From the NCBI GenBank assembly GCA_965208315.1, contig OZ242329.1, forward strand, positions 3,136,500-3,200,499: a DNA stretch of 64,000 bases, in the 5' to 3' direction. The position numbers and the translations under genes are program-made. The stretch comes from Chloroflexota bacterium (GTDB lineage Bacteria; Chloroflexota; UBA11872; VXOZ01). This document shows, piece after piece, positions 2,748-58,855 of this stretch (positions within the stretch are counted from its first letter, which is position 1; the number at the start of each line of letters is the position of its first letter). The notes under the pieces are model-generated. The model saw nothing but the letters and a program-made list of their open reading frames with translations. It made no database searches and had not been told where the DNA came from.

Positions 2748-2775
2748 GCGGTAGACATCTCGTAGGAGGCGGTTC

Positions 2776-3546
2776 ATGGCAAACAGGACAAACCCGGTCA
2801 TTGACAGTGCAGATCCGGTGGTGCAAGGGCCTGTTGCGCAGGCCCGGCGCGCCGGCAGAGGCCCCGCCATCTGGCTGGCGGGCGATCCTGAAGACCTTAA
2901 GCCTTGGATGGATCGTGGCGCCGCGGGCATCGTCACCAACACCGTCGTCCTGAATGACATGGTCAAGAAATACGGCCAGATCAGGGATGCCGTGCAGCGC
3001 TACCTCGACATCACCGACAAGCCCGTGGTCGTCGAGGTCGACGGCCACTCGACGGAAGAACTGCTGGATGTCAGCCACTACTTCACGCGCATGTCCGACC
3101 AGATCATCATCAAGATTCCCTGCACAGTAAACGCACTCGGCGCCTTTCGACGACTGGCGGCAGAAGGCATCGAGACCTACTGCACCACCGTTTTCTCACT
3201 GCCGCAGGCGGCCGCCGTTGCGCAGGCGGGCGCGACCCACGTCCTCCCCTTCTGCGAGCCGGTCAAGCAGATGGGCGGCGATCCCACCAAGCTGGTGCGT
3301 GAGTGCGTGCGCATGTTCGCGGGCTGGGAAAACCGTCCCTACGTTACCGCCGCTCTCGTCCGCAGCGTCGACACCGCCTACGCCGCCCTCCGCGATGGCG
3401 CTGACGGCATCATCATCTTTTGGACCACGTTTCAAGAGATGATGGAGCATCCCCTCACTGACACGTGGAATGAGACCTTCATGGGCGAGTGGGTTGCCAT
3501 GCACGAAGCCAGCCTGCTCGAAGGCGTGCCTGTGCGCCTCAACTAG
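2776..3546 (+). CDS. transaldolase-family protein (Fsa/TalC-like)
   Basis: GIVTNTVVLNDMVKKYG followed by a TIM-barrel-like remainder. About 256 aa, consistent with short transaldolase/F6P-aldolase family members. Confidence 0.65.
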   Translation: MANRTNPVIDSADPVVQGPVAQARRAGRGPAIWLAGDPEDLKPWMDRGAAGIVTNTVVLNDMVKKYGQIRDAVQRYLDITDKPVVVEVDGHSTEELLDVSHYFTRMSDQIIIKIPCTVNALGAFRRLAAEGIETYCTTVFSLPQAAAVAQAGATHVLPFCEPVKQMGGDPTKLVRECVRMFAGWENRPYVTAALVRSVDTAYAALRDGADGIIIFWTTFQEMMEHPLTDTWNETFMGEWVAMHEASLLEGVPVRLN

Positions 3547-3938
3547 CCTCCCGGTGTCTTTCTGAGCTCGAGAGCACTACGGATGAGGTCGCGAACTGCC
3601 GGAAGGCGTGCGTCCTCCAGCGAGCGAATCTTCACGTGGCGCATCTTGGCGCCGGTTCCTTCCAGGAGACCCTCGGGGTCCGCCAGTTCGACACCCTGGT
3701 AGAAACCGAGGTTGATCCACGATTTGTGAGGCAAAATGTAGGCGTAGCCGTCCTTCATCTTGCGGGGCCCCACGCCATAGGTCGCCGCTCGGTCGCCCAG
3801 GCGCACCACCTCGCATGCATTTGGGTCAACCCCACGAATAACCTCCCGCAGAGCCGCGGCCACGGCACGTAGGGGTTCCTCCGTCATCGCCAGCAAATCG
3901 TCAAACGTGCCGGTCTTTGCTTTAGACATGGTAACCAC
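3543..3938 (-). CDS. DUF1801 (YdhG-like) domain protein
   Basis: 131 aa. Pattern: ...AVAAALREVIRGVDPNACEVVRLGDRAATYGVGPRKMKDGYAYILPHKSWINLGFYQG. Confidence 0.5.
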   Translation of the reverse strand: MVTMSKAKTGTFDDLLAMTEEPLRAVAAALREVIRGVDPNACEVVRLGDRAATYGVGPRKMKDGYAYILPHKSWINLGFYQGVELADPEGLLEGTGAKMRHVKIRSLEDARLPAVRDLIRSALELRKTPGG

Positions 3939-4106
3939 TCAAGTCTCTGGTATCGACGAACGCGTTTTGTCTGTGCGACGAGGCGTGCTAGGCGGGAAGA
4001 AAGTCACATCTGGCATTAATGGCAAGGCTCGCACAGCAGTGTATCATAAGGTTTGCAGATCCTGAATCCGGACGTAACCCAGAATTCACGCCAATTAAGG
4101 ACCCTG

Positions 4107-4958
4107 ATGCCTGGCATCGATCTCCACCTGCACACCACTGCCTCTGACGGGGCGTTTGCGCCTGCTGACCTCGTGCGCATGGCGTATGAGGCCGGGCTCG
4201 ACTGCATCGCCATCACCGACCATGACAGCACTGACGGCGTGGCTATTGCCCAGGAGGCCGGACAAGGGCTCGGTGTGCGTGTGATTGCCGGTATTGAATT
4301 CAACACCATGTGGCACGGCCAGTCTGTGCACATACTCGGCTACTTCGTGGACACAGAACACCCGGAATTGCAGGCAGTCATTGCGCGCCAGCGCGACGGG
4401 CGCCTCTACCGTGCACAGAAGATAATTGAAAAACTGGCGACGCTCGACATGCCGCTCGTATGGGAAGAGATTCTCGCAGGCGCGGACGGGGGCGCCGTGG
4501 GACGTCCGCACATTGCCAAAGCCATGCTTGCGCAGGGCTACGTGAGCGAAGCCAACGAAGCCTTTGACAGATATCTTGGACACGGCATGCCGGCCTACGT
4601 AGAACAGCCGAAACTCACACCAAGTGATGCGGTCATGCTCCTCCACCGCGCCGGCGCCGCAGCCGGGCTCGCGCACCCGTACAACGTGGAAGGCGCGGAC
4701 CAGGTGGACCTGGGCATCTTGGTGCCGGAACTCGCCGATGCCGGCCTTGATGCCATCGAGACTTACTACACCGGCTACTCAACGGAGCAGCGTTCAGCCA
4801 TCTTGCAAATGGCCCAACAATTCAGCCTCATTCCAACCGGCGGCAGCGACTTTCACGGCGGGGGCATCCTAGTCCAAGCGGAATTAGGCGCAATCCGCGT
4901 GCCCCCGGAATCCCTGGCGCGACTGGAAGCGGAAGCCCGGCAACGCACGGCGCGGTAG
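4107..4958 (+). CDS. PHP-domain metal-dependent phosphoesterase
   Basis: MPGIDLHLHTTASDGAFAPADLV...AITDHDS: the PHP-domain His/Asp metal ligands. Start set at MPGID. Confidence 0.8.
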   Translation: MPGIDLHLHTTASDGAFAPADLVRMAYEAGLDCIAITDHDSTDGVAIAQEAGQGLGVRVIAGIEFNTMWHGQSVHILGYFVDTEHPELQAVIARQRDGRLYRAQKIIEKLATLDMPLVWEEILAGADGGAVGRPHIAKAMLAQGYVSEANEAFDRYLGHGMPAYVEQPKLTPSDAVMLLHRAGAAAGLAHPYNVEGADQVDLGILVPELADAGLDAIETYYTGYSTEQRSAILQMAQQFSLIPTGGSDFHGGGILVQAELGAIRVPPESLARLEAEARQRTAR

Positions 4959-6780: not shown

Positions 6781-6835
6781 CCGTTCGCCCTGAGTCTGCC
6801 TGTCCTGAGCTTGCCGAAGGGTCGAAGGGTGTACG
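6781..6835. repeat. C-type hairpin repeat (CCGTTCGCCCTGAGCTTGTCGAAGGGTGAACGG)
   Basis: Copies at 6879-6907, 24213-24268, 24295-24332, 45993-46036 and 58671-58703, all intergenic. Confidence 0.85.
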
Positions 6836-6970
6836 GCGAGGCTACTAGATGCATATTGAAGCTCGTATTCACTCTCCGCCCGTACTTCGACAAGCTCAGT
6901 ACGAACGGAAAGACTACTCGCCTTCGCTCTCGAGTAATAGTTCAAAGAAGAACAAGGGGTCACTCATCCC

Positions 6971-10432: not shown

Positions 10433-11593
10433 ATGAAAATCGTCGAAATCGAAGCACTCGTGCCCCAAGCTACCGGTCGCCGTAGCTGGCTTGTAGAAGA
10501 GCGCATGGCGAGTCCCATGGCGCCCTATCCCGAATACGCCGAGACGCGCAGTTCCTGGCAGGGCATGGTGCCGCGCACCATCGCCCGGGTCACCACTGAT
10601 GAAGGCGTCGCGGGCATCGGCGTGGGCGGGGGTGGCGCGCCCAGTTGCCACATCATCGAGCACCACCTCAAGCCACTGCTGGTTGGCAGGGACCCGCGCG
10701 ATATTGAGTTGCTCTGGGACCTCATGTACCGCGCCACACTGCCCTACGGGCGCAAGGGGCTGCCCATCATGGCGGTCAGCGCGATAGATAACGCCCTGTG
10801 GGATATCAAGGGCAAGGCGGCAGGGGTGCCGGTCTACGTGCTGCTTGGCGGCAAGACGAAAGGGCCGGGAAACCAGCCGCCGCGCGTTGCTCTTTATGCC
10901 AGCGGCAACCGCTCGGAAGCGTATACGCGTTTAGGGTTTCAACGGAATAAAGTCTTCATGCGCTACGGGCCGCCCGACGGCGCGGAAGGCATGCGGGAAA
11001 ACGAAGCGCAGGTAGCAGCGGCACGTGACGCGCTGGGACCGGACAGGCTCCTCATGATTGACGCCTGGATGGGCTGGGACGTGCCGTATGCCGTCACCAT
11101 GGCCGAGCGCCTGCGCCAGTTTGACGTCTACTGGTTGGAGGAACCGCTGCTGCCTGATGACTACGACGGCTATGCGACGCTGCGCAAGCGACTACCGTGG
11201 CTGCACATTGCCTGCGGCGAGCATGAATACACGCACTACGGGTTTCATGAGCTTATCAAGCAGGGCTGCGCGGACATCTTGCAGCCCGATCTCGCCTGGT
11301 GCGGCGGCATCACCGTGGCGCGGCGCGTGGCGGCCCTGGCCGAGACCCACGGCCTGCAGGTGATTCCCCATATCGGCGGCGTCATGAGCTACAACTTCGT
11401 CGCAGCGCACGGGGTCTGTCCCATGGCGGAATTCATCTTCGGCAGCGGCGACGGCACGGAGATTGCGCCCATTCATTCGTTCTATGTGGGCGAGCCCCTG
11501 CCTGAAGACGGAGAGGTGCAATTGAGCGATGCGCCGGGATGGGGAGTGGAGCTTTCGCCGCAAGCCGCGTACACGCGGCCTCATCCGGTGTAG
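10433..11593 (+). CDS. L-rhamnonate dehydratase-like enolase-superfamily enzyme, copy 2 (tandem paralog)
   Basis: Same motif set as copy 1 (GGGGAPSCHIIEHHL, VYVLLGG, WLEEPLLPDDYDGYATLR, CGEHEY, ILQPDLAWCGGIT). Start moved to MKIVEIEAL. The upstream part of the 574-aa track ORF is probably non-coding. Confidence 0.85.
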   Translation: MKIVEIEALVPQATGRRSWLVEERMASPMAPYPEYAETRSSWQGMVPRTIARVTTDEGVAGIGVGGGGAPSCHIIEHHLKPLLVGRDPRDIELLWDLMYRATLPYGRKGLPIMAVSAIDNALWDIKGKAAGVPVYVLLGGKTKGPGNQPPRVALYASGNRSEAYTRLGFQRNKVFMRYGPPDGAEGMRENEAQVAAARDALGPDRLLMIDAWMGWDVPYAVTMAERLRQFDVYWLEEPLLPDDYDGYATLRKRLPWLHIACGEHEYTHYGFHELIKQGCADILQPDLAWCGGITVARRVAALAETHGLQVIPHIGGVMSYNFVAAHGVCPMAEFIFGSGDGTEIAPIHSFYVGEPLPEDGEVQLSDAPGWGVELSPQAAYTRPHPV

Positions 11594-20690: not shown

Positions 20691-20918
20691 AGTGCGGCAT
20701 TGCGGATGTGGGCGTTGGCTCGTTCCTCAGTAGCGCGGGGGCTTGTCCCCCGCATAGCGTCCAGTGCGCGCGGTATTTCAACAGTGCGTTGCCTCTACCT
20801 CATGGCAGAAGGTCATTGCGACGCCGAAACAAGAGACAAACACGAATTTCTCGGCTGCTGCTCCAACTCATGAAGATCAAGATTCCGCTGCAAACCAAGA
20901 ACACCAGGACGGTGAATA

Positions 20919-21431: not shown

Positions 21432-21540
21432 AGGCGGGCACATGGGTGAACGTAAGAAGGTAACGCGAGGAGCCGTCGTCCGTCATTCCCGCGAAAGCGG
21501 GAATCCATCTTTTCTCGCGCCACCTGCACACTTCCCCAAG

Positions 21541-21565
21541 CGGGGGACAAGCCCCCGCGCTACGG
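21541..21565. repeat. D-type hairpin repeat (GGGGACAAGCCCCCGCGCTACGG)
   Basis: Copies at 20733-20759(-), 52992-53013 and 54372-54395. Confidence 0.8.
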
Positions 21566-24166: not shown

Positions 24167-24394
24167 TCACGAAGATTTACTGGGAATCCTCTTTGCGCCC
24201 GCTACGACTAATCCGTTCGCCCTGAGCTTGCCTGTCCTGAGCTTGCCGAAGGGTCGAAGGGTGAACGGGGCCATGCCCATCCTAGAAGCGTTTCTGTTCG
24301 CCCTAAGCGTGTCGAAAGGTGAGCGGGAACGGGGTTGCAAGGGCGCAAAGGCACCGCCTGGATTCTTCTCTAAGCATCAACCAAGCACTCTCAC

Positions 24395-26915: not shown

Positions 26916-28736
26916 CTATCCCAGAATTATCCCGCGCATCTCCATCGGCTGCGTCATCATCCAGGCGCCGGTAAAGAACAACAGTACAATGATAACCGCC
27001 CAGGGTAGGAGCGCACGAATAGCCCTTGCCATGGAGCCGTGTTGTTTTCTGGCGATGCGATAGCCAACCGTCAGCGAAACGAGCATGCCGAGTTCCAGCA
27101 GCAGTAGTTCAAGCGGCACCAACCAGGAATCTGGCACGATTGCGGCCAACTCCCATTGGGGAGCACCCAGTAGGGTCACGCCGAAGTCCGCGAGAAAGCT
27201 CTGCGTCACGGGAATTGCGGTCAATGCACCGATGAGGAAGTGGAAGCCGTAGTGCGCTAACCACATCCCAAAGCCGATGGGAATGAGGGCAAAGCTGAAG
27301 CGTGTCGCCGTGGCCGCCAGCGTTTCACGGCTCCCGCTGAGGGCGCGGCTGGACCACGCCGCAGCGGTCACCAGCACAAACGGCAGCGCCACGAGGCCCA
27401 CTATAAACAGCACGCCCAGCACCACCGGCTCACTGGTCACACCGAGTTGCCCGGCGAGCCACTGTTCCAGTGCGTAGACCGGCGCTACCATGCCGAAAGC
27501 GTTCACAAAGGCCGCGAACACGAGCACGTACACGAGCGCCGCCAGGTCGATGCGCTGCGCCAGCGCGCCGACGCCGGAGTGCAATTGATCCAGTTTGCGG
27601 AACTCGCTGGTGGGAGCGCGGAGCTGGATGCCGACGTTGTCGTAAGGACAGGCCTGAATGCAGTCCAGGCAGAACGTACAGTCCATGTTGCCGACTTTGC
27701 GTTCTTGGAAGAGCCACAGTTCGCAGCCGGTCTGCACGAGTTGGAGGCCGGCGGGGATGGCGATGTCTCTCTCGGCTTGCTTAGGCTCCTTTATTGAAGA
27801 TTGCTTGCTTTCACGGTGGGAAGATTCAGATGTCGTCGGCGCAGGCTCTTGACCCACTCGCCCTGCAGAAGATGGATTCCCGCTTGCGCGGGAATGACGG
27901 ATGCCGGGCTCACTATTGGAATTTCCTCTTGTAGCGTCCAGCGATTTACCCGGGACCCCAATTCCCTCGCCCAAACTCGGGGGACTCCCTCTCCCTTGAG
28001 GGAGAGGGTCGGGGTGAGGGTGACTCTTTGCAGACCAGCTTAATGCCGACAGAGAAGGTGAGTCCTGCGCGGCGTTCGTCTCGCGGGAGTGACGAAGAAC
28101 GTCCGGCTCAGGCCTCTGCGCATAGCGCCCCTTGATGCAGTCTTTGGTCGGACACGAACCGCAGAGGTCCGGCTGGCGCACCTTCACCTCCAGCGGCGAG
28201 ACCATGCCGTGGACGAAGTGGAACTGTCCGATGGGACAGACGTACTTGCAAAAGGCCGCGCCGCGAAAGATGCCGTCAATGGCGAAGGCCGCCACAAAGT
28301 ACGTCAAGGCCACCCACGCCGTGAGCCAGGGACTCGCCCACAGATCGAAGGCCTCATACGCCCAGAAGAAGACCAAGAGAACGCCAAGCGCCAGCCACTT
28401 GTTGCGAATGACCTTCGGCCAGCGCCGGTTGGCGGGCAGGAGCTTCTTGGCCAGGCGGCGCGGCAGCATGAACGGGCACGCCATGCAAAAGATGTTGCCC
28501 GCAATGAGCAGCGCCAGCACCACCAAGCCCCGCCAATGCACCCAGGGCAACACGCCGGCGAGATTCTTGGGCGCGAGTTGCGGACCCCAGAAACCGTCAT
28601 AGAGGATGAGCGCCGACACTGCCAGCAGCACAGCCTGCATTGATGTCCGGGCATGCTTCCAGCGCAGAAAGCTCCCAATTACGGGCAGGTTGAGAAGATC
28701 GCGCTGGGTCGACGGCTGGGTGCGCGGCACAGCCAC
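26916..28736 (-). CDS. FixG/CcoG-like membrane polyferredoxin (4Fe-4S binding) carrying an in-frame repeat-derived insertion
   Basis: CMACPFMLPRR, FCKYVCPIGQFHFVHG, CGSCPTKDCIKG ... CTFCLDCIQACPYDN, plus TM helices. The low-complexity segment of about 100 aa between the two Cys clusters is encoded by mosaic repeat units at 27868-28023. Confidence 0.65.
   Translation of the reverse strand: MAVPRTQPSTQRDLLNLPVIGSFLRWKHARTSMQAVLLAVSALILYDGFWGPQLAPKNLAGVLPWVHWRGLVVLALLIAGNIFCMACPFMLPRRLAKKLLPANRRWPKVIRNKWLALGVLLVFFWAYEAFDLWASPWLTAWVALTYFVAAFAIDGIFRGAAFCKYVCPIGQFHFVHGMVSPLEVKVRQPDLCGSCPTKDCIKGRYAQRPEPDVLRHSRETNAAQDSPSLSALSWSAKSHPHPDPLPQGRGSPPSLGEGIGVPGKSLDATRGNSNSEPGIRHSRASGNPSSAGRVGQEPAPTTSESSHRESKQSSIKEPKQAERDIAIPAGLQLVQTGCELWLFQERKVGNMDCTFCLDCIQACPYDNVGIQLRAPTSEFRKLDQLHSGVGALAQRIDLAALVYVLVFAAFVNAFGMVAPVYALEQWLAGQLGVTSEPVVLGVLFIVGLVALPFVLVTAAAWSSRALSGSRETLAATATRFSFALIPIGFGMWLAHYGFHFLIGALTAIPVTQSFLADFGVTLLGAPQWELAAIVPDSWLVPLELLLLELGMLVSLTVGYRIARKQHGSMARAIRALLPWAVIIVLLFFTGAWMMTQPMEMRGIILG
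27985..28023. repeat. E-type hairpin repeat (CTCCCTCTCCCTTGAGGGAGAGGGTCGGGGTGAGGGTGA)
   Basis: Second copy at 57178-57215. The copy here lies inside the fixG-like CDS. Confidence 0.8.
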
Positions 28737-28738
28737 GG

Positions 28739-29206
28739 CTAGTTTCCTTCCTTGCCCTTGTCGGACTTCATGTCCATCTCACCCTGCACGCCTTTCAGAT
28801 CAATGCGCTGTTCGGCCGTTCTGCCGTTGGCGAACGTGGCGCGCACGATGATGACCCAGTCGCCGCCCATAGTGAATCTGAAGTCCTCAGTAACGTACGT
28901 GCCGTTGCCACGGGCTTCAGTCGCAACGATAACCGGCTGCATACCGGCATGGGTCATCGTGCCCTCCACCTGAATGGTGGCGTCTGATACGAGATTACCT
29001 GCCATGTCCCGGATCTGCAGGGTTATTTCGGCGTCACCTACCGCCGCAGGCTCCGGCGAGATAGAGACGATTGTCACGTCGAGTCCGCCGGTCTCTCCGG
29101 CACGCGGTCCGCACGCGCTGAATACGAGCGCGACAGACAGGGCGATCAAGACGACAACCAGCGTTCGAGCATTGTGCGTGATTTCGGAAAGACCTAAACG
29201 AACCAA
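28739..29206 (-). CDS. FixH/YtkA-like lipoprotein (Met/His-rich, possible Cu-binding)
   Basis: Lipobox ALVFSACG. TMTHAGMQPV motif. Ig-like size of 155 aa. Lies next to fixG-like. Confidence 0.5.
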   Translation of the reverse strand: MVRLGLSEITHNARTLVVVLIALSVALVFSACGPRAGETGGLDVTIVSISPEPAAVGDAEITLQIRDMAGNLVSDATIQVEGTMTHAGMQPVIVATEARGNGTYVTEDFRFTMGGDWVIIVRATFANGRTAEQRIDLKGVQGEMDMKSDKGKEGN

Positions 29207-29289: not shown

Positions 29290-29315
29290 TAGGGCGGTTC
29301 GCGAACCGCCCCTAC
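29290..29315. repeat. G-type perfect palindrome (AGGGCGGTTCGCGAACCGCCCCTAC)
   Basis: Second copy at 37197-37224. Confidence 0.8.
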
Positions 29316-33153: not shown

Positions 33154-33183
33154 TCCGTCACTCCGGCGAAAGCCGGAGTCCAG
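33154..33183 (+). repeat. B-type hairpin repeat (TCCGTCACTCCGGCGAAAGCCGGAGTCCAG)
   Basis: Copies at 37026-37055(-) and a variant at 21601-21630. Often adjacent to A-type units. Confidence 0.8.
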
Positions 33184-33359: not shown

Positions 33360-34211
33360 ATGGCACGCATGAAAGTGGTTGTTACCGGAGCTGCGGGCTA
33401 CGTTGCTTCTCAGCTCTTGCCGGCGTTTCGCGAGCGGTATGATCTCGTCCTGCTGGACAATCGGAACCGCACCCGCGACGGCGCCCTGGTTGAGGGCGTT
33501 ACCATCTCCGATCTCCGCGAATTCGACCGGGAGACGTACCGCCGCTTCTTCAATGGGGCGGACGCCATCGTGCACCTGGCTTTCAACTACAAAGCGGGGC
33601 ATTCGATGAATGACGGCGACTACTACTCAGAACGGTCGAATCTCGATCTGGCCTACCACGTCTACCAGACCGCCGTGGATGAGGGAGTAAAGCGGGTCGT
33701 CATCGCCAGTTCCAACCATGCCGCCGACTGGTATGAACACTTGCTGCGGCAGCGCAAAATGGAGATGCTCGACGTCACCGCGCCACCGCTTTCAGACAAT
33801 TTCTACGGCTGGGCGAAGGCGTGTTACGAGCATCTGGGGTTTCTTGCTGCCACTGGGGCCATGGGCCGCGCAGTGGAAATTGTGCAGGTGCGCATTGGGG
33901 CGCCACGGCAGATACCGGCGGACAGCGCCGCAAAAGACCTCACGAGCTATAAGCGCAATCTGGGCGCATACATCAGCCCCCGCGACTTGCAGCAACTCTT
34001 TGTCAAATCCATTGAAACGCCGGATATCACGAACGAGCACGGCGTCCCCTTCCAGATCTTCTACGGCGTGTCCAACAACGCGCGGGCCTTTTGGAGCATC
34101 GCCAATGCCCGCAAAGTGATTGGCTACGCGCCGCAGGACGACTCGGAAGTCGTCTTCGCCGACGACATCCGGCGGGTGCTGGTGGCTGGCAAGAGCGTGG
34201 GTAGGCTCTGA
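33360..34211 (+). CDS. NAD-dependent epimerase/dehydratase family protein
   Basis: VVVTGAAGYVASQL, then YGWAKA (YxxxK). Confidence 0.75.
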   Translation: MARMKVVVTGAAGYVASQLLPAFRERYDLVLLDNRNRTRDGALVEGVTISDLREFDRETYRRFFNGADAIVHLAFNYKAGHSMNDGDYYSERSNLDLAYHVYQTAVDEGVKRVVIASSNHAADWYEHLLRQRKMEMLDVTAPPLSDNFYGWAKACYEHLGFLAATGAMGRAVEIVQVRIGAPRQIPADSAAKDLTSYKRNLGAYISPRDLQQLFVKSIETPDITNEHGVPFQIFYGVSNNARAFWSIANARKVIGYAPQDDSEVVFADDIRRVLVAGKSVGRL

Positions 34212-34328: not shown

Positions 34329-34680
34329 TGTGTACTGGTATATACGACGCCAGATCTACCGCTCTTTCTCCCAAATCCGTCAACGAATCTCCTGACTTCT
34401 ACAATTCCGAGCGTAGCAAGGAATCTAAGCTGCAAGACTGCTCACGCGCCGCACTTGGTTCATCAAGCTAACGGCGATACCGCAGGGAGGGTTGCCCCCG
34501 CCTCTTGGTACGCCTCGCACAATGTGAGTACCTTGAAGATGGATTCCCGCTTGCGCGGGAATGACGGCGCATAAGGGTATGCACTATTTGCTTCCCCGAA
34601 GTTGACGTATACGTTACGATAATAGGGAAGGCTCCTTTCCTAATCTCCCAAACATAGCAGCAGTAGAGGATTTAAACGTC

Positions 34681-36920: not shown

Positions 36921-37167
36921 GTAATTCGTTGACAGAATTTGCTGCCGATCCGATGTGACAAGCGCGAGAATACGCCTCTTAACCGTCATTCCCGTGAAAA
37001 CGGGAATCCATCTTCTCCGCGTGCCCTGGACTCCGGCGTTCGCCGGAGTGACGGACAAATGGGCGATTTCAAACCTAAAGCAAAGCAATGCAGTCTGGCA
37101 CCTTCCCAGGCGATTACTATGGTGCCCTTCACTCTTGATCTTGGTGCGATTCTTTCAACGAATTACC
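36921..37167. mobile_element. candidate MITE: ~250-bp element with 18-bp terminal inverted repeats enclosing hairpin repeat units
   Basis: TIRs GTAATTCGTTGACAGAAT (36921-36938) and ATTCTTTCAACGAATTAC (37150-37167) match 17/18 as reverse complements. Between them lie one A-type and one B-type repeat unit. Confidence 0.45.
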
Positions 37168-37269
37168 TGAAATTTACAGTAGCGACGGAAAAAGCGTTAG
37201 GGGCGGTTCGCGAACCGCCCCTACGTTTTATTAATGGCAAAAGGTACCGGGTCTGCAACCGCCGAGCGA

Positions 37270-45974: not shown

Positions 45975-46044
45975 CGGGCACAGGCTGTTGAAAGATTCGG
46001 TATCCGTTCATCCTTCGACAAGCTCAGGACGAACGGTTGTCCTG

Positions 46045-48865: not shown

Positions 48866-49027
48866 GCGTTACCTTTACGCATTGCGGCGCGCGAACCCGG
48901 GAGCGCGGGTGTCTCGCCCGCAGGCTACCATGACGCGAGCCACTGTCGAACTTGCGCATCTACCCCTTGGGGCACTTGGGCTTCTCAGCGCTGTGTGAAA
49001 CGCTGGCGCTGCATTGCAGCACTCACG

Positions 49028-49570
49028 TTAACTCTCTCGTTCATACCCATCGTTCCCATTCGTCACCCGAGCATACGCGCTGCTAAACCGCCAGTCCACG
49101 TTGCGCTGGCAGAGGCCGGCCTTCACAGGATTGGCTTCTATGTAGGCAATGGCTGCGGTGAAATGCCGCTCATTACGGATAAAGCGGTCAAAGTAATCCT
49201 GGCTCCAAAATGGCGCGGAGCAGCCGAAACGCTTGACCGCTTGATGGGCCGTAAATGACTTCCAGCTATGTATGATCGTGGAAACGGCATGCCCGGCTAA
49301 TGGCGCAAAGAGCACGTGAACGTGTGTCGGCATCACAACCCACGCGTGCAAATGGTAGCGCGTGTTGGCGAAATAGAGCAAGGCATCTTCTACCATCGCT
49401 GCAAGCTGTGGGTTGCGTAGAGGCGTATCTTTGGTTTCTTGATCAAGGTACGCTTCAAGCCGGCGGCGCAAGGCGCTCTTTTTTTGCGTTTCGCCAAGAT
49501 AGTTGAGTTCTTGGTTCCATCTAGCGAGTACAGTTGACGGTAATGTTCCGGCAAGCCGGAAAGTTACCAT
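49028..49570 (-). mobile_element. REP-associated tyrosine transposase (RAYT) / IS200-IS605 TnpA-like Y1 transposase gene
   Basis: HUH motif VMPTHVHVLF, catalytic Tyr region, 180 aa. No tnpB is present. The genome is rich in REP-like hairpins. Confidence 0.7.
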
Positions 49571-49753
49571 CTGCGGGATCGCTCCTCCGTCGAAGTGTGG
49601 CAGATAGCCGCGAAAGTGCCAACCGCGTGGCTCAAGGGTGGCAGACGGCAGTGATGCGGATGCGGGCGGGACGCCCGCGTTCCCAGCCGTTTCCTCTCTT
49701 TTATCTTAATCGCAGGTAGCTCCCACCGGCATCCGGGAGTCCATTCCCAGATA

Positions 49754-52689: not shown

Positions 52690-53165
52690 GGATTGGCCTT
52701 ACGTTGCATAGTTGCGGTCCGTATATATGATAGTACATTGTGGTGCCAAGAGACGGGAGTAAGCCAAATGCTGTCACATTAACCATTGCGGCGGGGAACA
52801 TGGCGCCCTTCGACAAACTCACAGTGTCCCGCATCCCGGTAGCGCAGGCCCTTTGGCAGGCTCAGGACAGGTTTGTAACCCCGTATCGAGTACGGGGCAG
52901 GCTCTGCGCTTGCTGGAGGATCAAGCCTCGTATACCTTCTCTCTCATGCGGCAATGTCGGACAATGTGCCTGGCACTGCTTGCTCAGGCGAGGGACAAGC
53001 CCCCGCGCTACGGTTCGTTAGAGAGGCTCGATCTTGCACGGCAAGAATGCAGCAATCGAGTTCAGGCGCTTTCTTGCGCTCATTTGGCGTTTGACGGCAA
53101 GATATGAGTGTGGACGCCCAGGTAAGGTATCAACTTAGTGAAGCCCGAGGAGTGACGATTCACCG

Positions 53166-54140: not shown

Positions 54141-54538
54141 ATTGCCCTCGAGCGCAAGAGCCGGCAATGCCTCCGCTTTCCTTGGATAGATTCACACCTC
54201 TCCTTGTCGGGCTCCACGGTATCGTTCAGAGTAGGGGCACGATATATCGTGCCCCTGCCGCGCAATCAGCCGTCGAAGTGCATCCGTCACTACCGTGCAA
54301 GTGGGAGTCCAGCTTCTCTCATCATACTGCGCGTGCTTCAGAGGAGAGTGTTGCCTGGACACCATCCGGAGCGGGGACAAGCCTCCGCGCTACAATCCTT
54401 TACCCTACCAAGGCAAGCTCCACTGTCTTGGGTGATTGACTGGATATGCTATCATAATTATTGATGGGCAAGAAAACAGGCAGAACGGGTATGCGTTTGT
54501 GACAAGCGACAATGGCAAGACCATAAAGGGAGCCTACA

Positions 54539-55816
54539 ATGCTTACACGACGTGCCTTGATAGCGAGCACAGCGGCGCTGGCGGCCGGGTGTAGCTCTCT
54601 TGAATCGGCATTCTCCGTGCCGAACCAGCCTCGAACAATCGATCTGACGTGGATTTCGGAGGCGTATGGAGGATTCCGCGAACGGGGACTCGGGCCGAAT
54701 GGTCTTGAAGAAACGCTCAAACATATAGTGGCAGCGCTGGAGGAGGACATCGAGAATCCGAATGGACCTGCAAAGGCACGCTATACCCTGACATCACGCT
54801 TCGTGCGCTCGGAAAATGCGGATCCCCCGCTGCAGAGTATTGATGATGTTATCGCCTGGTACGGAGGCTTGGAGGCCGACCTCCTGTCTGTGCCGCCCTT
54901 TCTTGCCCAATTGCTAGGGGAGCGAGGCGTGATCTTGTCTTTAGACCAGCTAGTCTCAGCAGATGGGTCCGAGTTCACTGACGCCATATACCCCTACCTT
55001 CTCGATCACTTTCGGTCCGATGGCGGGCTCTTTGCTCTGCCGGTAGATGCGGGCCCAACGATGATTCACTACAACCCAAGAGTCTTGTCCCAGGATGACG
55101 TGAGCAGGATAAATGAGGGTTGGCACTGGGATGACATGGTGGAAATTGCCGAGAAACTGACCGAACGCGATGAAAACGGAGAGGTGCAGCGCTGGGGACT
55201 GATCACACAGCATCAAGGATACTGGTGGGCGCTGTGGCAGAACGAAGCGGAGCTGGCCGACCCAATTACGAATCAGTGTCGGCTTCTGGAGCCGGCGGCC
55301 ATTGAAGCGCTGCAATTTTGCCACGACTTGATACACACGCATCAGGTCTCACCGCCTGTGACGAGTTTCGACGCTTGGAGCGCCTTCCAGAGCGGGTCTT
55401 GGCCGCCGATGTTCTTTTCGTCCGTGCAAGGCAATTGGAGTTCGGATAACCGCTGGGCGGCCCTGCCACGGGGCAAGCAGCACAGCGTGCCGGTGATTGG
55501 AAACATGGGTATCGCCATCACCGATAGGGCCCAGAACACGGAGGCAGCGTTTACGGCGCTCAAGGGTCTGGTTGGTGTCATGCAGCGTTTTGTGGAAGTG
55601 CCGGCGCAGAAGGAAGCAATCACCCGGCTGGGCGATTTTCGCAAGACTTTGCTTCCCGCTGAGATTGCGGCTTTCCAGCACTCGATGGAACACGGACGGG
55701 CGATACCCTTTAGCCGAGCCATGTGGACTGCTATGCGCGCGCTAGAGGAGGGCATCGTGCGGGGTGACGACGTTCTTACTGCGGTGAACGACGCCTGTTC
55801 CTCGCTGCAAGCGTAA
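54539..55816 (+). CDS. family-1 solute-binding lipoprotein, paralog A (orphan, Tat-like signal + lipobox)
   Basis: MLTRRALIASTAALAAGCSS. FALPVDAGPTMIHYNP, WGL...WWALWQN. Confidence 0.65.
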   Translation: MLTRRALIASTAALAAGCSSLESAFSVPNQPRTIDLTWISEAYGGFRERGLGPNGLEETLKHIVAALEEDIENPNGPAKARYTLTSRFVRSENADPPLQSIDDVIAWYGGLEADLLSVPPFLAQLLGERGVILSLDQLVSADGSEFTDAIYPYLLDHFRSDGGLFALPVDAGPTMIHYNPRVLSQDDVSRINEGWHWDDMVEIAEKLTERDENGEVQRWGLITQHQGYWWALWQNEAELADPITNQCRLLEPAAIEALQFCHDLIHTHQVSPPVTSFDAWSAFQSGSWPPMFFSSVQGNWSSDNRWAALPRGKQHSVPVIGNMGIAITDRAQNTEAAFTALKGLVGVMQRFVEVPAQKEAITRLGDFRKTLLPAEIAAFQHSMEHGRAIPFSRAMWTAMRALEEGIVRGDDVLTAVNDACSSLQA

Positions 55817-55847
55817 AGCTGACCGCAGATATGAAAGGATCAGTGCC

Positions 55848-57134
55848 ATGCTTACACGACGCGCCTTGCTAGCGAGCACAGCAGCGCTGGCGGCCGGTTG
55901 CGGGCCGCTCAGATCATCTTCGGATCTGCCCAGTGGGCCGGAGGCCGCCGCGCTCACGTGGTACACCTTTTCGTTTAGCGGCCTATTTGTCCCAAATGGC
56001 TCATTTGAACAGCCGCAAGAGAGGCTGCCAAAGATTGTAGCCGCGATGGGGGAGGATGTAGAAAATCCCAACGGCCCCGTGCGCGGAAATTACTCCTTGT
56101 CGCCGCGTGTCATAGGCCGCGACGACTATCCGGATCCGCCGCCCAGGAACCAAGACGAATTTGCGGAGTGGATCGGCGGCATCAATACGGACCTCCTGTC
56201 TATCAGTCCCAGTATGGCGGAATCCTTGGGGAGGCGGGGCGTGATATTGCCCTTAGAGCGCTTCATCGCCGCTGATGATCAGGACCTTGCGGATACGTTT
56301 TACCCTTATGTGCTCGATCAATTTCGAGGAGAGGGTGGGCTTTTCGCTCTGCCAATAGACGCGGATCCGCTTCTGCTCAATTACAACCCGGCTCACTTTG
56401 CGGCGCAGGGGATTCCATCGCCGGACGAGAGCTGGGACTGGGACGACCTGATAGCAAACGCGGTAAAGCTGACCCAGCGGGACGACGACGGGAACGTGAC
56501 GCGTTGGGGGCTCGTCCCGCATTTTCATGGATTGTGGTGGGCGCTATGGCAGAACGAGGCGGAAGTGCTTGGTCCGGTGACTGGGCAGTGCCGGCTGCAA
56601 GAGCCGGCCGCCACCGCAGCCCTACAATTCTGCCATGACCTGTTCCACACCCATCGCGTCGCGCCACCGGTGGCCGGGAGAGAGTTGTGGGATATCTATA
56701 GCTTGCCGCCGGATGTATTTCCAGCCATGTTCTTTAGTCAAGTCACTCGGGCGCATAGATACGAGTACCGTTTGGCAGAATTGCCCCAGGGCAAAGTGCG
56801 CAGCGTGCCGGTCTCTGCCGACATGGGCCTCGCCATTCATGCCCGTTCTGGACAAACCGACGCAGCATATACGGCACTTAAGGGTCTTTTGCAAACGATG
56901 CAACGCTTCGTTGCCGTGCCAGCACAGATAGAGGCCGTCGCGCGGCTGGGAGAGATACGGCCAAGTCTCCTCCCAGAAGAAGTGGCGGCTATTCAGCGGT
57001 CCATGGAGCATGGACGCGCGCTCACGTGGGGCGATGGGGCAGGGCATGCCATGCAGCACGTGGTCGACGGCCTCGCGCGCGGTGATGAAGTGGCTACCGT
57101 GGTGAACGAGGCCTGCGCCATAGTGGAAGAGTAG
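55848..57134 (+). CDS. family-1 solute-binding lipoprotein, paralog B
   Basis: MLTRRALLASTAALAAGCGP. FALPIDADPLLLNYNP. Highly similar to paralog C. Confidence 0.65.
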   Translation: MLTRRALLASTAALAAGCGPLRSSSDLPSGPEAAALTWYTFSFSGLFVPNGSFEQPQERLPKIVAAMGEDVENPNGPVRGNYSLSPRVIGRDDYPDPPPRNQDEFAEWIGGINTDLLSISPSMAESLGRRGVILPLERFIAADDQDLADTFYPYVLDQFRGEGGLFALPIDADPLLLNYNPAHFAAQGIPSPDESWDWDDLIANAVKLTQRDDDGNVTRWGLVPHFHGLWWALWQNEAEVLGPVTGQCRLQEPAATAALQFCHDLFHTHRVAPPVAGRELWDIYSLPPDVFPAMFFSQVTRAHRYEYRLAELPQGKVRSVPVSADMGLAIHARSGQTDAAYTALKGLLQTMQRFVAVPAQIEAVARLGEIRPSLLPEEVAAIQRSMEHGRALTWGDGAGHAMQHVVDGLARGDEVATVVNEACAIVEE

Positions 57135-57348
57135 CGGTACCAGACAGGCCACGATCACGCAAGCGGGAGGCAAATTCTCCCTCTCCCGCTGGGAGAGGGT
57201 TGGGGTGAGGATGAACGTCCGTTGCGATGGTGTTAGGAAACAAGGCCATGCGTGTGCGCGGTCGTTTCTCTCACGTAACGGAACATCTAGGACGAAATTC
57301 GCATCCCGTTGTTTGAAGACCAAAGACGGCACCGAAAGGAGCAGTGCT

Positions 57349-58638
57349 ATGCTTACACGACGCGCCTTGCTAGCGAGCACAGCAGCGCTGGCGGCCGGCT
57401 GCGGGCCGTTCAGGTCTTCATCAGATCTGCCCAGCCAACCGGAGGTGGCCGCGCTCATATGGCGTACGTTTTCGTTTAGCGGTCTTTACTACCAGCCAAG
57501 CTTGACCTTCGAAGAGCCGCAAGAGAAATTGCTGAGAATTGTTGCCACGCTGGAGGAAGACGTAGACAACCCCAACGGTCCTGCAACCGGTCGTTACACG
57601 CTAGCGCCCGGGCTCATCGGCCAAGGAGACTATCCTGACCCTCCGCCCAAGGACGACGATGAGTTTGCCGAATGGATCGACAGCATCGAAACTGACCTCT
57701 TGTCTATCAGTCCCGATATGGCGGAAACCCTAGGGAAGCGGGGCGTCATACTGCCGTTGGAGCGGTTCATCGCAGCCGACGACCAGGACCTCACGGAGAC
57801 GTTCTACCCCTATGTGCTCGATCAATTTCGCGGTGAAGGCGGTCTCTATGCGCTGCCCATAGACGCGAATCCGCTGCTACTCTACTACGACCCCGCCTAT
57901 CTCAGACTTCGAGGTGTTTCTCCACCAGACGAAACGTGGACCTGGGACGACCTAGCAGCCAATGCGCTGGTACTGACCAGGCGCGACGAGGAAGGGCAGG
58001 TGACGCGGTGGGGTCTCATGCCCCACTTTCGCGGGCTCTGGTGGGCGCTGTGGCAGAACGGGGCAGAGGTGAATGACCCGGTGACCGGCCGGTGCCGTTT
58101 GCAGGACCCGGCCGCCACGGAAGCCCTGCAATTCTTTCACGACCTGCTGCATATCCACCAGGTCGCGCCGCCGGTGGGTGGGAGAGAGACCTGGGAGTTT
58201 TACGGCGGGATGGACGATACGGTGCCGGCGATGTTCATTAGTACAGTCAATCATGAACCAAGGTTTGACTACCGCTTGGCAGAGCTGCCGCGCGGCAAGG
58301 TGCGCAGCGTGCCGGTTTCCGCCCACATGGGTCTTGCCATCCACGCGCGCTCGGGGCAGACCGATGCGGCGTACACGGCTTTGAAGGGTCTGTTGCAGAC
58401 GATGCAACGCTTTGTGGGCGTGCCTGCGCAGAGAGAGATGGTAGCGCGGCTGCCAGAGATTTGGCCAACACTGGGGCCCGCGCAATTGACGGCTCTGCAA
58501 CAGTCAATGGAATTCGGACGGGCAGCGCCCTGGGACGACCGCGCGTGGCAGGTCATGCAACATATCGTGGACGGCCTCGCGGGCGGCGATGAAGTGGCGA
58601 CCGTGGTGAACGATGCATGCGCAGTGCTGGAGGAATAG
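57349..58638 (+). CDS. family-1 solute-binding lipoprotein, paralog C
   Basis: MLTRRALLASTAALAAGCGP. YALPIDANPLLLYYDP. AAAGGA RBS. Confidence 0.65.
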   Translation: MLTRRALLASTAALAAGCGPFRSSSDLPSQPEVAALIWRTFSFSGLYYQPSLTFEEPQEKLLRIVATLEEDVDNPNGPATGRYTLAPGLIGQGDYPDPPPKDDDEFAEWIDSIETDLLSISPDMAETLGKRGVILPLERFIAADDQDLTETFYPYVLDQFRGEGGLYALPIDANPLLLYYDPAYLRLRGVSPPDETWTWDDLAANALVLTRRDEEGQVTRWGLMPHFRGLWWALWQNGAEVNDPVTGRCRLQDPAATEALQFFHDLLHIHQVAPPVGGRETWEFYGGMDDTVPAMFISTVNHEPRFDYRLAELPRGKVRSVPVSAHMGLAIHARSGQTDAAYTALKGLLQTMQRFVGVPAQREMVARLPEIWPTLGPAQLTALQQSMEFGRAAPWDDRAWQVMQHIVDGLAGGDEVATVVNDACAVLEE

Positions 58639-58855
58639 CAGTAACCTGAGAGGATATCTGGAAAGAGTATCCGTTCGGCCTGAGCTTGTCGAAGGATGAA
58701 CGGATACTGTCTTTGCGAACGGATTATTGTTTCCGTACGCGTTGCGCTTGCTTCTCTTGGGCCGACAAAAGAGGCCCCAGTCTGAACGGCGCTTGGCTGA
58801 GCGCTTACGAGACACTCTTGAGAACCGAGCGCAACCTTGCGCTGCGGAGCAGTGG

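Follow-up and report, generated by a model that had tools for sequence, protein, structure and literature searches.

How does a small hairpin repeat that otherwise lies between genes come to be part of a protein, and what becomes of the gene that hosts it? A 64,000-nt stretch of the genome of a Chloroflexota bacterium (contig OZ242329.1, positions 3,136,500 to 3,200,499; called the window throughout, with coordinates referring to it unless another locus is named) raises this question, as a gene for a FesM-type membrane polyferredoxin contains, between two cysteine motifs, short structured units that recur intergenically. A preliminary description made from the letters of the window had noticed these units and read them as the in-frame insertion of an element resembling a repetitive extragenic palindrome (REP) or a miniature transposable element with inverted repeats (MITE). 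Our analysis confirms the observation and supports its interpretation in part. The linker very probably consists of small structured repeats drawn from the genome's own pool and read in frame, which entered long ago and have been remodeled since.

Repeat Units in the FesM Linker

The FesM gene (26916..28736, minus strand) is an intact open reading frame (ORF) of 606 codons without internal stop, as first described. Its hypervariable linker comprises codons 206-336 (27729..28121, minus strand), connects a CxxCxxxxC motif with a GCELW...CTFCLDCIQACP motif and is predicted to form a disordered loop. Within this linker, a hairpin unit, previously called A-type, has the architecture CGTC / ATTCCCGC / GCAA / GCGGGAAT / CCA (core 27873..27899, extended 27867-27901, minus strand) and is translated as RHSRASGNP. 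Units of this kind measure 27-37 nt. In the definition of CGTC-1 REPs (PMC3733652), a CGTC head is followed by a stem of 8 bp that begins with AT, a loop of 4 nt and a short CCA tail that stays unpaired. We found an unpaired CGTC head in all seven full units of the window, including the genic one, and an 8-bp stem with A-T at the first two positions (ATTCCCGC / GCGGGAAT). The 4-nt loop is GCAA in the genic unit and GAAA in most copies, and every unit ends in a CCA tail. Among 12 distinct units from the window and orthologous loci, 97.9% of the stem cells are paired, and three pairs have changed on both sides. The genic hairpin also appears in the predicted local fold. Head-to-head dimers predominate in CGTC-1, which is a tendency of the family, and head-to-tail dimers have been called negligible (PMC3733652); here, the window has a single close pair (36984+ / 37027-), arranged tail-to-tail, and the genic arrays described below are head-to-tail. 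Based on the defining sequence features, we assign the A-type unit to the CGTC-1 REP family, which has been equated by its authors with Rickettsia conorii RPE-6 and Neisseria dRS3 (PMC3733652). A search of the whole window with Rfam at gathering thresholds matched no family.

Six of the seven full CGTC-1 units in the window are intergenic and located between long ORFs. The 35-nt segment 27867-27901 matches six other sites with 91-100% identity (20657, 21479, 33244, 34535, 36983 and a variant at 37027), and a 27-nt pattern with at most three mismatches allowed has six matches in the window compared with none in 100 shuffles. The genic unit is identical in 33 of 33 nt to the copy at 34535-34567 (unit 34540..34566, minus strand), which shares its unusual GCAA loop and lies between ORFs ending at 34211 and starting at 34672. 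Intergenic CGTC-1 copies are likewise present in the orthologous loci L001, L002, L004 and L006. The exact 26-nt core CGTCATTCCCGCGAAAGCGGGAATCC occurs in at least 120 DNA stretches (loci L008-L127) of a collection with one genome per species. Its hosts are Alpha-, Beta-, Gamma- and Deltaproteobacteria, Dehalococcoidia, Anaerolineales, Nitrospirota, Terriglobia, Gemmatimonas, Binatia, Phycisphaerae and two lineages of the candidate phyla radiation (CPR). With CPR, Planctomycetota and Acidobacteriota included, the host range of CGTCATTCCCGCGAAAGCGGGAATCC is far wider than the five phyla given for CGTC REPs in 2013.

A probable decayed CGTC unit, CGTCACTCCCGCGAGACGAACG, is found further upstream in the linker (28074..28095, minus strand; translated LRHSRET). 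It has retained the head and the 5' arm and has lost the 3' arm when compared with an intact variant, CGTCACTCCGGCGAAAGCCGGAGTCCA, at 33156. The same relic is found in L005, and it has decayed further in L003.

The second kind of repeat, previously called E-type, reads CCCTCTCCC TTGA GGGAGAGGG TC GGGGTGAGGG T (27987..28021, plus strand). Judged by its sequence, it corresponds to the BoxC/PIT element, for which Holder et al. (2015, NAR 43:10126; PMC4666352) gave a new description as a G+C-rich intrastrand triplex motif (TM) in a paper that cites the preceding BoxC studies of Bachellier and Maher. Compared with E. coli TMECO no. 2, the window copy CCCTCTCCCTTGAGGGAGAGGGTCGGGGTGAGGGT has two differences (33/35 identical; Table 1, PMC4666352), and its purine block and third strand are identical to those of TMECO nos. 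12 and 20. The pyrimidine block, the purine block and the G/T-rich third strand, joined by short loops, are all present at 27987-28020. The motif is located on the plus strand, i.e. the template strand of the gene, which reads the complement as HPHPDPLPQGRG. A search for this unit with three mismatches allowed returned three matches in the window, where 0.03 are expected. A second copy is intergenic (57179..57211, plus strand, downstream of the ORF 55848..57134), and further intergenic BoxC copies occur in orthologous loci and in unrelated genomes, so that both units of the gene, as first reported, are also found between genes. For the BoxC region, the hairpin part alone is predicted by the fold, and a tandem-repeat search of the window linker returned just the trivial TGAGGG periodicity inside BoxC. 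As a separate observation, the second BoxC copy falls between the second and the third of three tandem paralogous genes of ~1.3-1.5 kb each (54524-58340, 61-86% nucleotide identity).

The Linker among FesM Homologues

We compared the window protein with its best 120 homologues, namely the 28 closest sequences (P0001-P0028, hereafter clade proteins) and 92 more distant FesM proteins, in 72 of which the spacer between the cysteine motifs could be measured. The spacer from CxxCxxxxC[I/V] to GCELW spans 135 amino acids in the window protein versus a median of 30 in the 72 distant homologues, and the entire protein measures 606 versus a median of 501 amino acids in the 92. The extra segment derives from repeats translated in frame and corresponds to this surplus in length, as the preliminary description had anticipated. 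The 28 clade proteins are ~65-100% identical to the window protein, measure 529-679 amino acids and have spacers of 58-208 amino acids. Each carries one to five xHSxxSxNP units, in one orientation and frame throughout, and 11 of them contain the BoxC peptide HPHPxPLPxGRG, again in the same orientation and frame. Unit-derived peptides were found in none of the 92 more distant FesM proteins, a statement that concerns these protein sequences and not the repeats of their genomes.

We next compared eight orthologues at the DNA level, whose linkers range from 54 to 161 amino acids. In all eight, the 3'-most site of the linker is occupied by a CGTC-1 unit. Its stem is simple, with CCCGCG in the window, L002 and L006 and with CCGGCG in L007 and L128. 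In L001 (10709-10753), L003 (4810-4854), L004 (10715-10759) and L005 (10832-10876) the unit is a 45-nt variant that encloses a further hairpin, CGCCCCG-NNN-CGGGGCG, and is translated as RHSRESSPRAGARNP; in L004, the inner stem has undergone a compensatory change to CGCCCCC/GGGGGCG. Two metagenome scans for the 45-nt variant, meant to show whether it exists outside FesM, returned no match at all, a result that is uninformative, as the collection evidently lacks the Joint Genome Institute (JGI) contig that bears the variant. Comparable long-loop or nested CGTC units were found in other taxa (L034, L072, L101, L115) by a regular-expression scan of 120 loci, and this type of variant is thus not specific to FesM. 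In L001, L003, L004 and L005, the 45-nt variant itself was seen only inside FesM.

The remainder of the linker is patchy. Related genomes differ in which units they carry, and the presence of BoxC varies even between sister taxa in a tree calculated from the conserved domains. The FesM linker of L006 contains a 72-bp tandem array (10632-10957, 4.5 copies, 78% matches) with one CGTC-1 unit per period, which yields five RHSxxSxNP motifs at a spacing of 24 residues, and several other orthologues have their units spaced at the same 24 codons. Taken together, the patchy distribution of units, the 72-bp array and the nested hairpins show that remodeling has occurred repeatedly. The preliminary description had proposed a tolerated in-frame insertion, and the in-frame linker is indeed there; a recent event in this genome is not supported, since the 3'-most unit is present in all eight orthologues and has been remodeled since, which indicates that the insertion is old and reshaped.

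An independent recent in-frame insertion is found elsewhere in the gene. P0026 additionally carries a clean 51-nt in-frame insertion (…AKGSVIPAKAGIHPPQP…; L128 ~3941-3991, gene 2759-4411) in the short turn between two predicted transmembrane helices, which is a different loop of the protein. It contains a CGTC-1 unit that is read in a different frame as VIPAKAGIH. As the insertion is absent from the sister protein P0024 and from all other homologues, CGTC-1 units do enter FesM anew.

Constraint on the Repeat Units

The units are conserved to an extent that their surroundings are not. They differ by at most 1 of 27 nt among the window, L002 and L006, although the latter two are only 62-65% identical to the window at third-codon positions (35-38% divergence); overall, neutral sites have diverged by 24-38% while the units have remained nearly invariant. 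The Arg/Gly swap seen at positions 4 and 7 of the translated peptide corresponds to a compensatory stem change, and the two positions are complementary in 32 of 34 units. Constraint therefore appears to act on the DNA and not on the peptide.

These data bear on the possibility that RHSxESxNP is an ordinary low-complexity linker or peptide repeat under selection at the protein level, with its intergenic similarity being coincidental or secondary. Such a repeat could account for a motif that is confined to one frame, recurs as many as five times and is spaced regularly at 24 residues. It does not account for the 33-nt identity to an intergenic copy or for the exact 26-nt core in 120 or more DNA stretches from many phyla. 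Positions 4 and 7 covary as base pairs and not as similar amino acids, P0026 has a CGTC-1 unit in another frame, and the motif is missing from the 92 more distant FesM proteins. We regard this explanation as extremely improbable.

More weight should be given to the idea that the genic hairpin and triplex units are maintained by selection at the nucleic acid level and are not tolerated passengers. As structures in the mRNA or DNA, they could possibly make translation or transcription pause between the two halves of the membrane protein that bind Fe-S. Alternatively, they could possibly be a built-in site of instability, at which frequent recombination would adjust loop length and give rise to variants. 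If true, this would explain why near-invariant, paired units persist amid a linker and synonymous divergence of 24-38%. The units do form conserved islands in a fast-evolving linker, and the compensatory changes hold stem pairing despite radical Arg-to-Gly and Gly-to-Arg swaps, with the inner hairpin of the 45-nt variant being compensated as well. In addition, BoxC loci have been linked to local genomic instability and reported to be rearrangement-prone (PMC4666352). However, gene conversion or replacement by the many genomic copies predicts equal conservation, and intergenic copies are conserved just as well. The apparent compensation may represent a subfamily swap: both stem variants also exist as genome-wide subfamilies, and conversion and structural selection are for this reason not separable here. 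Many orthologues lack BoxC with no sign of harm, and the RNA of the entire linker folds no more stably than shuffled sequences (z = -0.92), with the two local hairpins alone standing out. Selection on the nucleic acid is, in our view, unlikely, though it is the strongest competitor of a repeat-derived linker that was acquired and then remodeled.

Consequences for the Protein

We predicted the structure of the window protein with AlphaFold2 (AF2) using 69 homologues. The model shows confident domains on either side of the linker (predicted template modeling score (pTM) 0.78). Residues 224-324 have predicted local distance difference test (pLDDT) values below 50 and no secondary structure, and they are bracketed by strands 203-207 and 331-336. 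The PDB was searched by sequence with a FesM profile and by structure with the AF2 model (Foldseek), neither of which returned a significant match, and the fold context of the loop is thus that of the model. In the alignment of the 69 homologues, all cysteine ligands are invariant, as are over 80 further columns. Nucleotide identity in the coding sequence on either side of the linker is 77-89%, versus 62-76% at the third-codon positions of the N-terminal part.

The preliminary description had considered that the insertion may inactivate the protein. Indeed, ~100 extra residues between the cysteine motifs of a ferredoxin-like domain and weak Pfam matches to Fe-S domains would be expected for an insertion-inactivated gene, a decaying pseudogene or an assembly chimera. 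Yet all 28 clade proteins were recovered at full length and without truncation despite their very different linkers, all eight genes read at the DNA level translate to the expected full-length protein, and short FesM homologues score equally weakly in Pfam. Together with the invariant cysteine ligands, the conservation of the flanks beyond their third-codon positions and the confident folding of both domains around the loop by AF2, this makes a dead or chimeric gene very improbable. With full-length clade proteins, a predicted disordered loop and conserved flanks, inactivation by the insertion appears unlikely.

Mis-assembly, which had been named as a possible refutation, can be ruled out. A protein identical to that of the window is encoded on contigs of 44.7 kb and 3.5 Mb, and a version with one substitution is found on a 7.2-kb contig of another metagenome-assembled genome (MAG). 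Besides this recurrence on three contigs, orthologues on contigs of 2-3.5 Mb share the architecture.

A Possible History of the Linker

We propose that the window linker was assembled from one CGTC-1 hairpin that is still intact, one CGTC unit that has since decayed, one BoxC motif and spacers. We infer that, in an ancestor of this Chloroflexota clade, a permissive loop on the protein surface, located between the cysteine motifs, received a unit or a mosaic array. Survival would have depended on a length that is a multiple of three, on a stop-free frame and on polar, disorder-prone residues (Arg, His, Ser, Glu, Gly, Asn, Pro). Read from the sequence, five of the six frames of a unit are free of stops. 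Other frames would place hydrophobic residues or cysteines next to the Fe-S site, and the frame in use is the polar one. REPs that are read in frame, previously held to be uncommon, are no rarity in genomes rich in REPs (PMC3733652, Additional file 3), and the five open frames point in the same direction. Later, the repeats may have served as substrates for unequal recombination or slippage, possibly also for gene conversion with other copies. The outcome would be the tandem duplications, deletions, subtype swaps and nested hairpins described above, and a loop that varies from ~55 to ~200 amino acids among orthologues.

Several points weigh against this history. The near-invariance of the units seems to require gene conversion or selection on structure, and a view of the units as neutral passengers appears insufficient. 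Transposition as the route of entry would have neither a visible target-site duplication nor a known CGTC transposase behind it: we could see no inverted termini or target-site duplication at the P0026 insertion, and no transposase dedicated to CGTC REPs is known (PMC3733652). The eight DNA sequences may fit an ancestral BoxC with repeated loss as well as they fit repeated gain. Finally, the notion that FesM retains its function with the repeat stretch as a disordered loop, while most likely, derives from the conservation of the ORF and from the structural model.

Relation to Known Systems

Palindromic repeats that are translated in frame are already established, namely the Rickettsia palindromic elements (RPEs), intragenic GTAG and CGTC REPs and the Coxiella MITEs. 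The closest parallel are the intragenic CGTC-1 units reported by Di Nocera, De Gregorio & Rocco (2013, BMC Genomics 14:522), which have the same architecture, give xHSRxSGNP and VIPAKAGI peptides and, as here, represent a minority located in ORFs next to mostly intergenic copies. The published intragenic CGTC-1 peptides CHSRRSGNP, CYSRESRNP, VIPAKAGI, SFPRKRES and DSRFRGND (PMC3733652, Additional file 3) are translations of one and the same DNA in different frames. Up to 82 amino acids are encoded by GTAG and CGTC REPs located inside genes, with clusters encoding 43-82 amino acids (PMC3733652). The hosts in that study are Proteobacteria, Chlorobi, Bacteroidetes, Spirochaetes and Thermotogae, not Chloroflexi (PMC3733652); in our case, moreover, one loop of one gene is occupied clade-wide, with head-to-tail 72-bp arrays and nested-hairpin variants.

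The RPEs are likewise palindromic repeats that lie in frame in protein genes and have been retained in proteins that function (Ogata et al. 2000 and 2002, as cited in PMC5896051). They differ from the present case, where units of 27-37 nt were inserted together with a repeat of a second class and belong to the MAG of a free-living Chloroflexota host. RPE-1 is ~100-150 bp long and was described in an obligate intracellular alphaproteobacterium. MITE-derived protein extensions are known from Coxiella QMITE1/2 (PMC5896051; bacterial MITEs are reviewed in PMC10969869), where again a small non-autonomous repeat adds amino acids to an annotated protein. MITEs, however, are 100-400 bp long and have terminal inverted and direct repeats, whereas the window units are short stem-loops with neither. 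The REP- or MITE-like character initially ascribed to the insertion thus stands for REP, with CGTC-1 plus the BoxC motif. The MITE reading was discarded, as the units are single stem-loops of 27-45 nt without terminal inverted repeats or target duplications.

The genic BoxC unit resembles the E. coli copies in its near-identical three-block sequence, its multiple copies and its association with sequence that is locally variable among relatives. In contrast to the E. coli copies, which are located in relation to ORFs and described as intergenic, it lies on the template strand of the gene and yields HPHPxPLPQGRG on in-frame translation. The BoxC paper uses neither of the words 'intragenic' and 'in-frame' (PMC4666352), and this may be the first description of an in-frame BoxC/triplex motif. 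Our understanding of the mechanism is unchanged, because intragenic REPs are established. What appears to be new are CGTC-1 REPs in Chloroflexota, and judging by the exact-match scan in many other phyla too, and the clade-wide occupation and remodeling of one loop with head-to-tail arrays.

The case details how two of the most widespread small bacterial repeats can become protein sequence. A permissive loop has been built and rebuilt across a clade with one to five REP units, an optional BoxC, 72-bp arrays and nested hairpins, and a second loop has received a fresh insertion. It also offers an explanation for odd low-complexity inserts such as RHSxESxNP, HPHPxPLPxGRG and VIPAKAGI, which annotators and structure predictors meet in MAG proteins.

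The Host Gene and Its Neighborhood

The gene had initially been called fixG/ccoG-like. With CcoG/FixG, NapH/MauN and FesM proteins, the window protein shares an N-terminal membrane domain with a CxxxCP motif, followed by ferredoxin-type cysteine motifs. We took as CcoG/FixG members proteins with Fer4_5, Fer4_18 and a C-terminal FixG_C domain, or with a match to the NCBIfam ccoG model. Unlike CcoG/FixG, the window protein has neither FixG_C nor Fer4_18, and the NCBIfam ccoG model was not matched either in our Pfam and NCBIfam searches, which rules out a CcoG identity. Pfam returned only sub-threshold matches to Fer4_5 (17.1 bits, cutoff 22) and Fer4_7 (17.5 bits, cutoff 27), and NCBIfam returned NapH-type models far below cutoff (NapH 31 bits, cutoff 213). 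Short FesM homologues also have no precomputed Pfam domain. The NCBI entry MDE2931868.1, named 'FesM [Chloroflexota bacterium]', is 100% identical to the window protein. We therefore place the gene among FesM/NapH-like families as a putative FesM-type polyferredoxin, a label that follows the NCBI annotation of MDE2931868.1 and its relatives. The FesM of Synechococcus PCC 7002 was described by Xu, Liu & Zhao (2005, Plant Physiol 138:1586, as cited in PMC9003380).

Directly upstream, separated by a 2-nt gap, lies a YtkA-like gene (28739..29206, minus strand; PF13115, E = 1.6e-13), a conserved partner that adjoins FesM in all orthologous loci. The order ROK - YtkA-like - FesM - small downstream ORF (63-100 amino acids) is kept in eight orthologous loci. 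In P0035 (717 amino acids), a YtkA-like domain (PF13115) is fused to FesM, which supports a functional link between the two neighbors. The YtkA-like neighbor is reminiscent of FixH, the partner of FixG.

Other Repeats and a Transposase-like Gene

GTAG-tagged REP families, GTAGCGCGGGGGCTTGTCCCC and [G]TAGGGGCGGTTCGCGAACCGCCC, are present in the window alongside CGTC-1 (20730-20753, 21540-21563, 52988-53011, 54373-54393, 29292-29314 and 37198-37220). The genome thus hosts both REP superfamilies, plus BoxC. The window also contains a Y1_Tnp ORF (49028-49570, minus strand; PF01797, E = 2.3e-7) that resembles REP-associated tyrosine transposases (RAYTs) and IS200 transposases. It has an HVH motif and shares ~40% identity with Stenotrophomonas RAYTs over 60 amino acids, and its reading frame appears to extend upstream of the listed ATG (…RGYLPHFD…). 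No CGTC-1 units are found at its flanks, in agreement with the published lack of a dedicated CGTC transposase. Other hairpins are located there, namely GCGGGCG-TCC-CGCCCGC upstream and a weak GTAG-tagged hairpin downstream (49662-49678 and ~48905-48928, respectively). Additional hairpin repeats of the form CCGTTCG..CTGAGCTTG.CGAAGG..GAACGG, with 80-97% identity, are found at 6781-6836 and 24213-24268, and at 6867-6909, 45995-46036 and 58670-58709.

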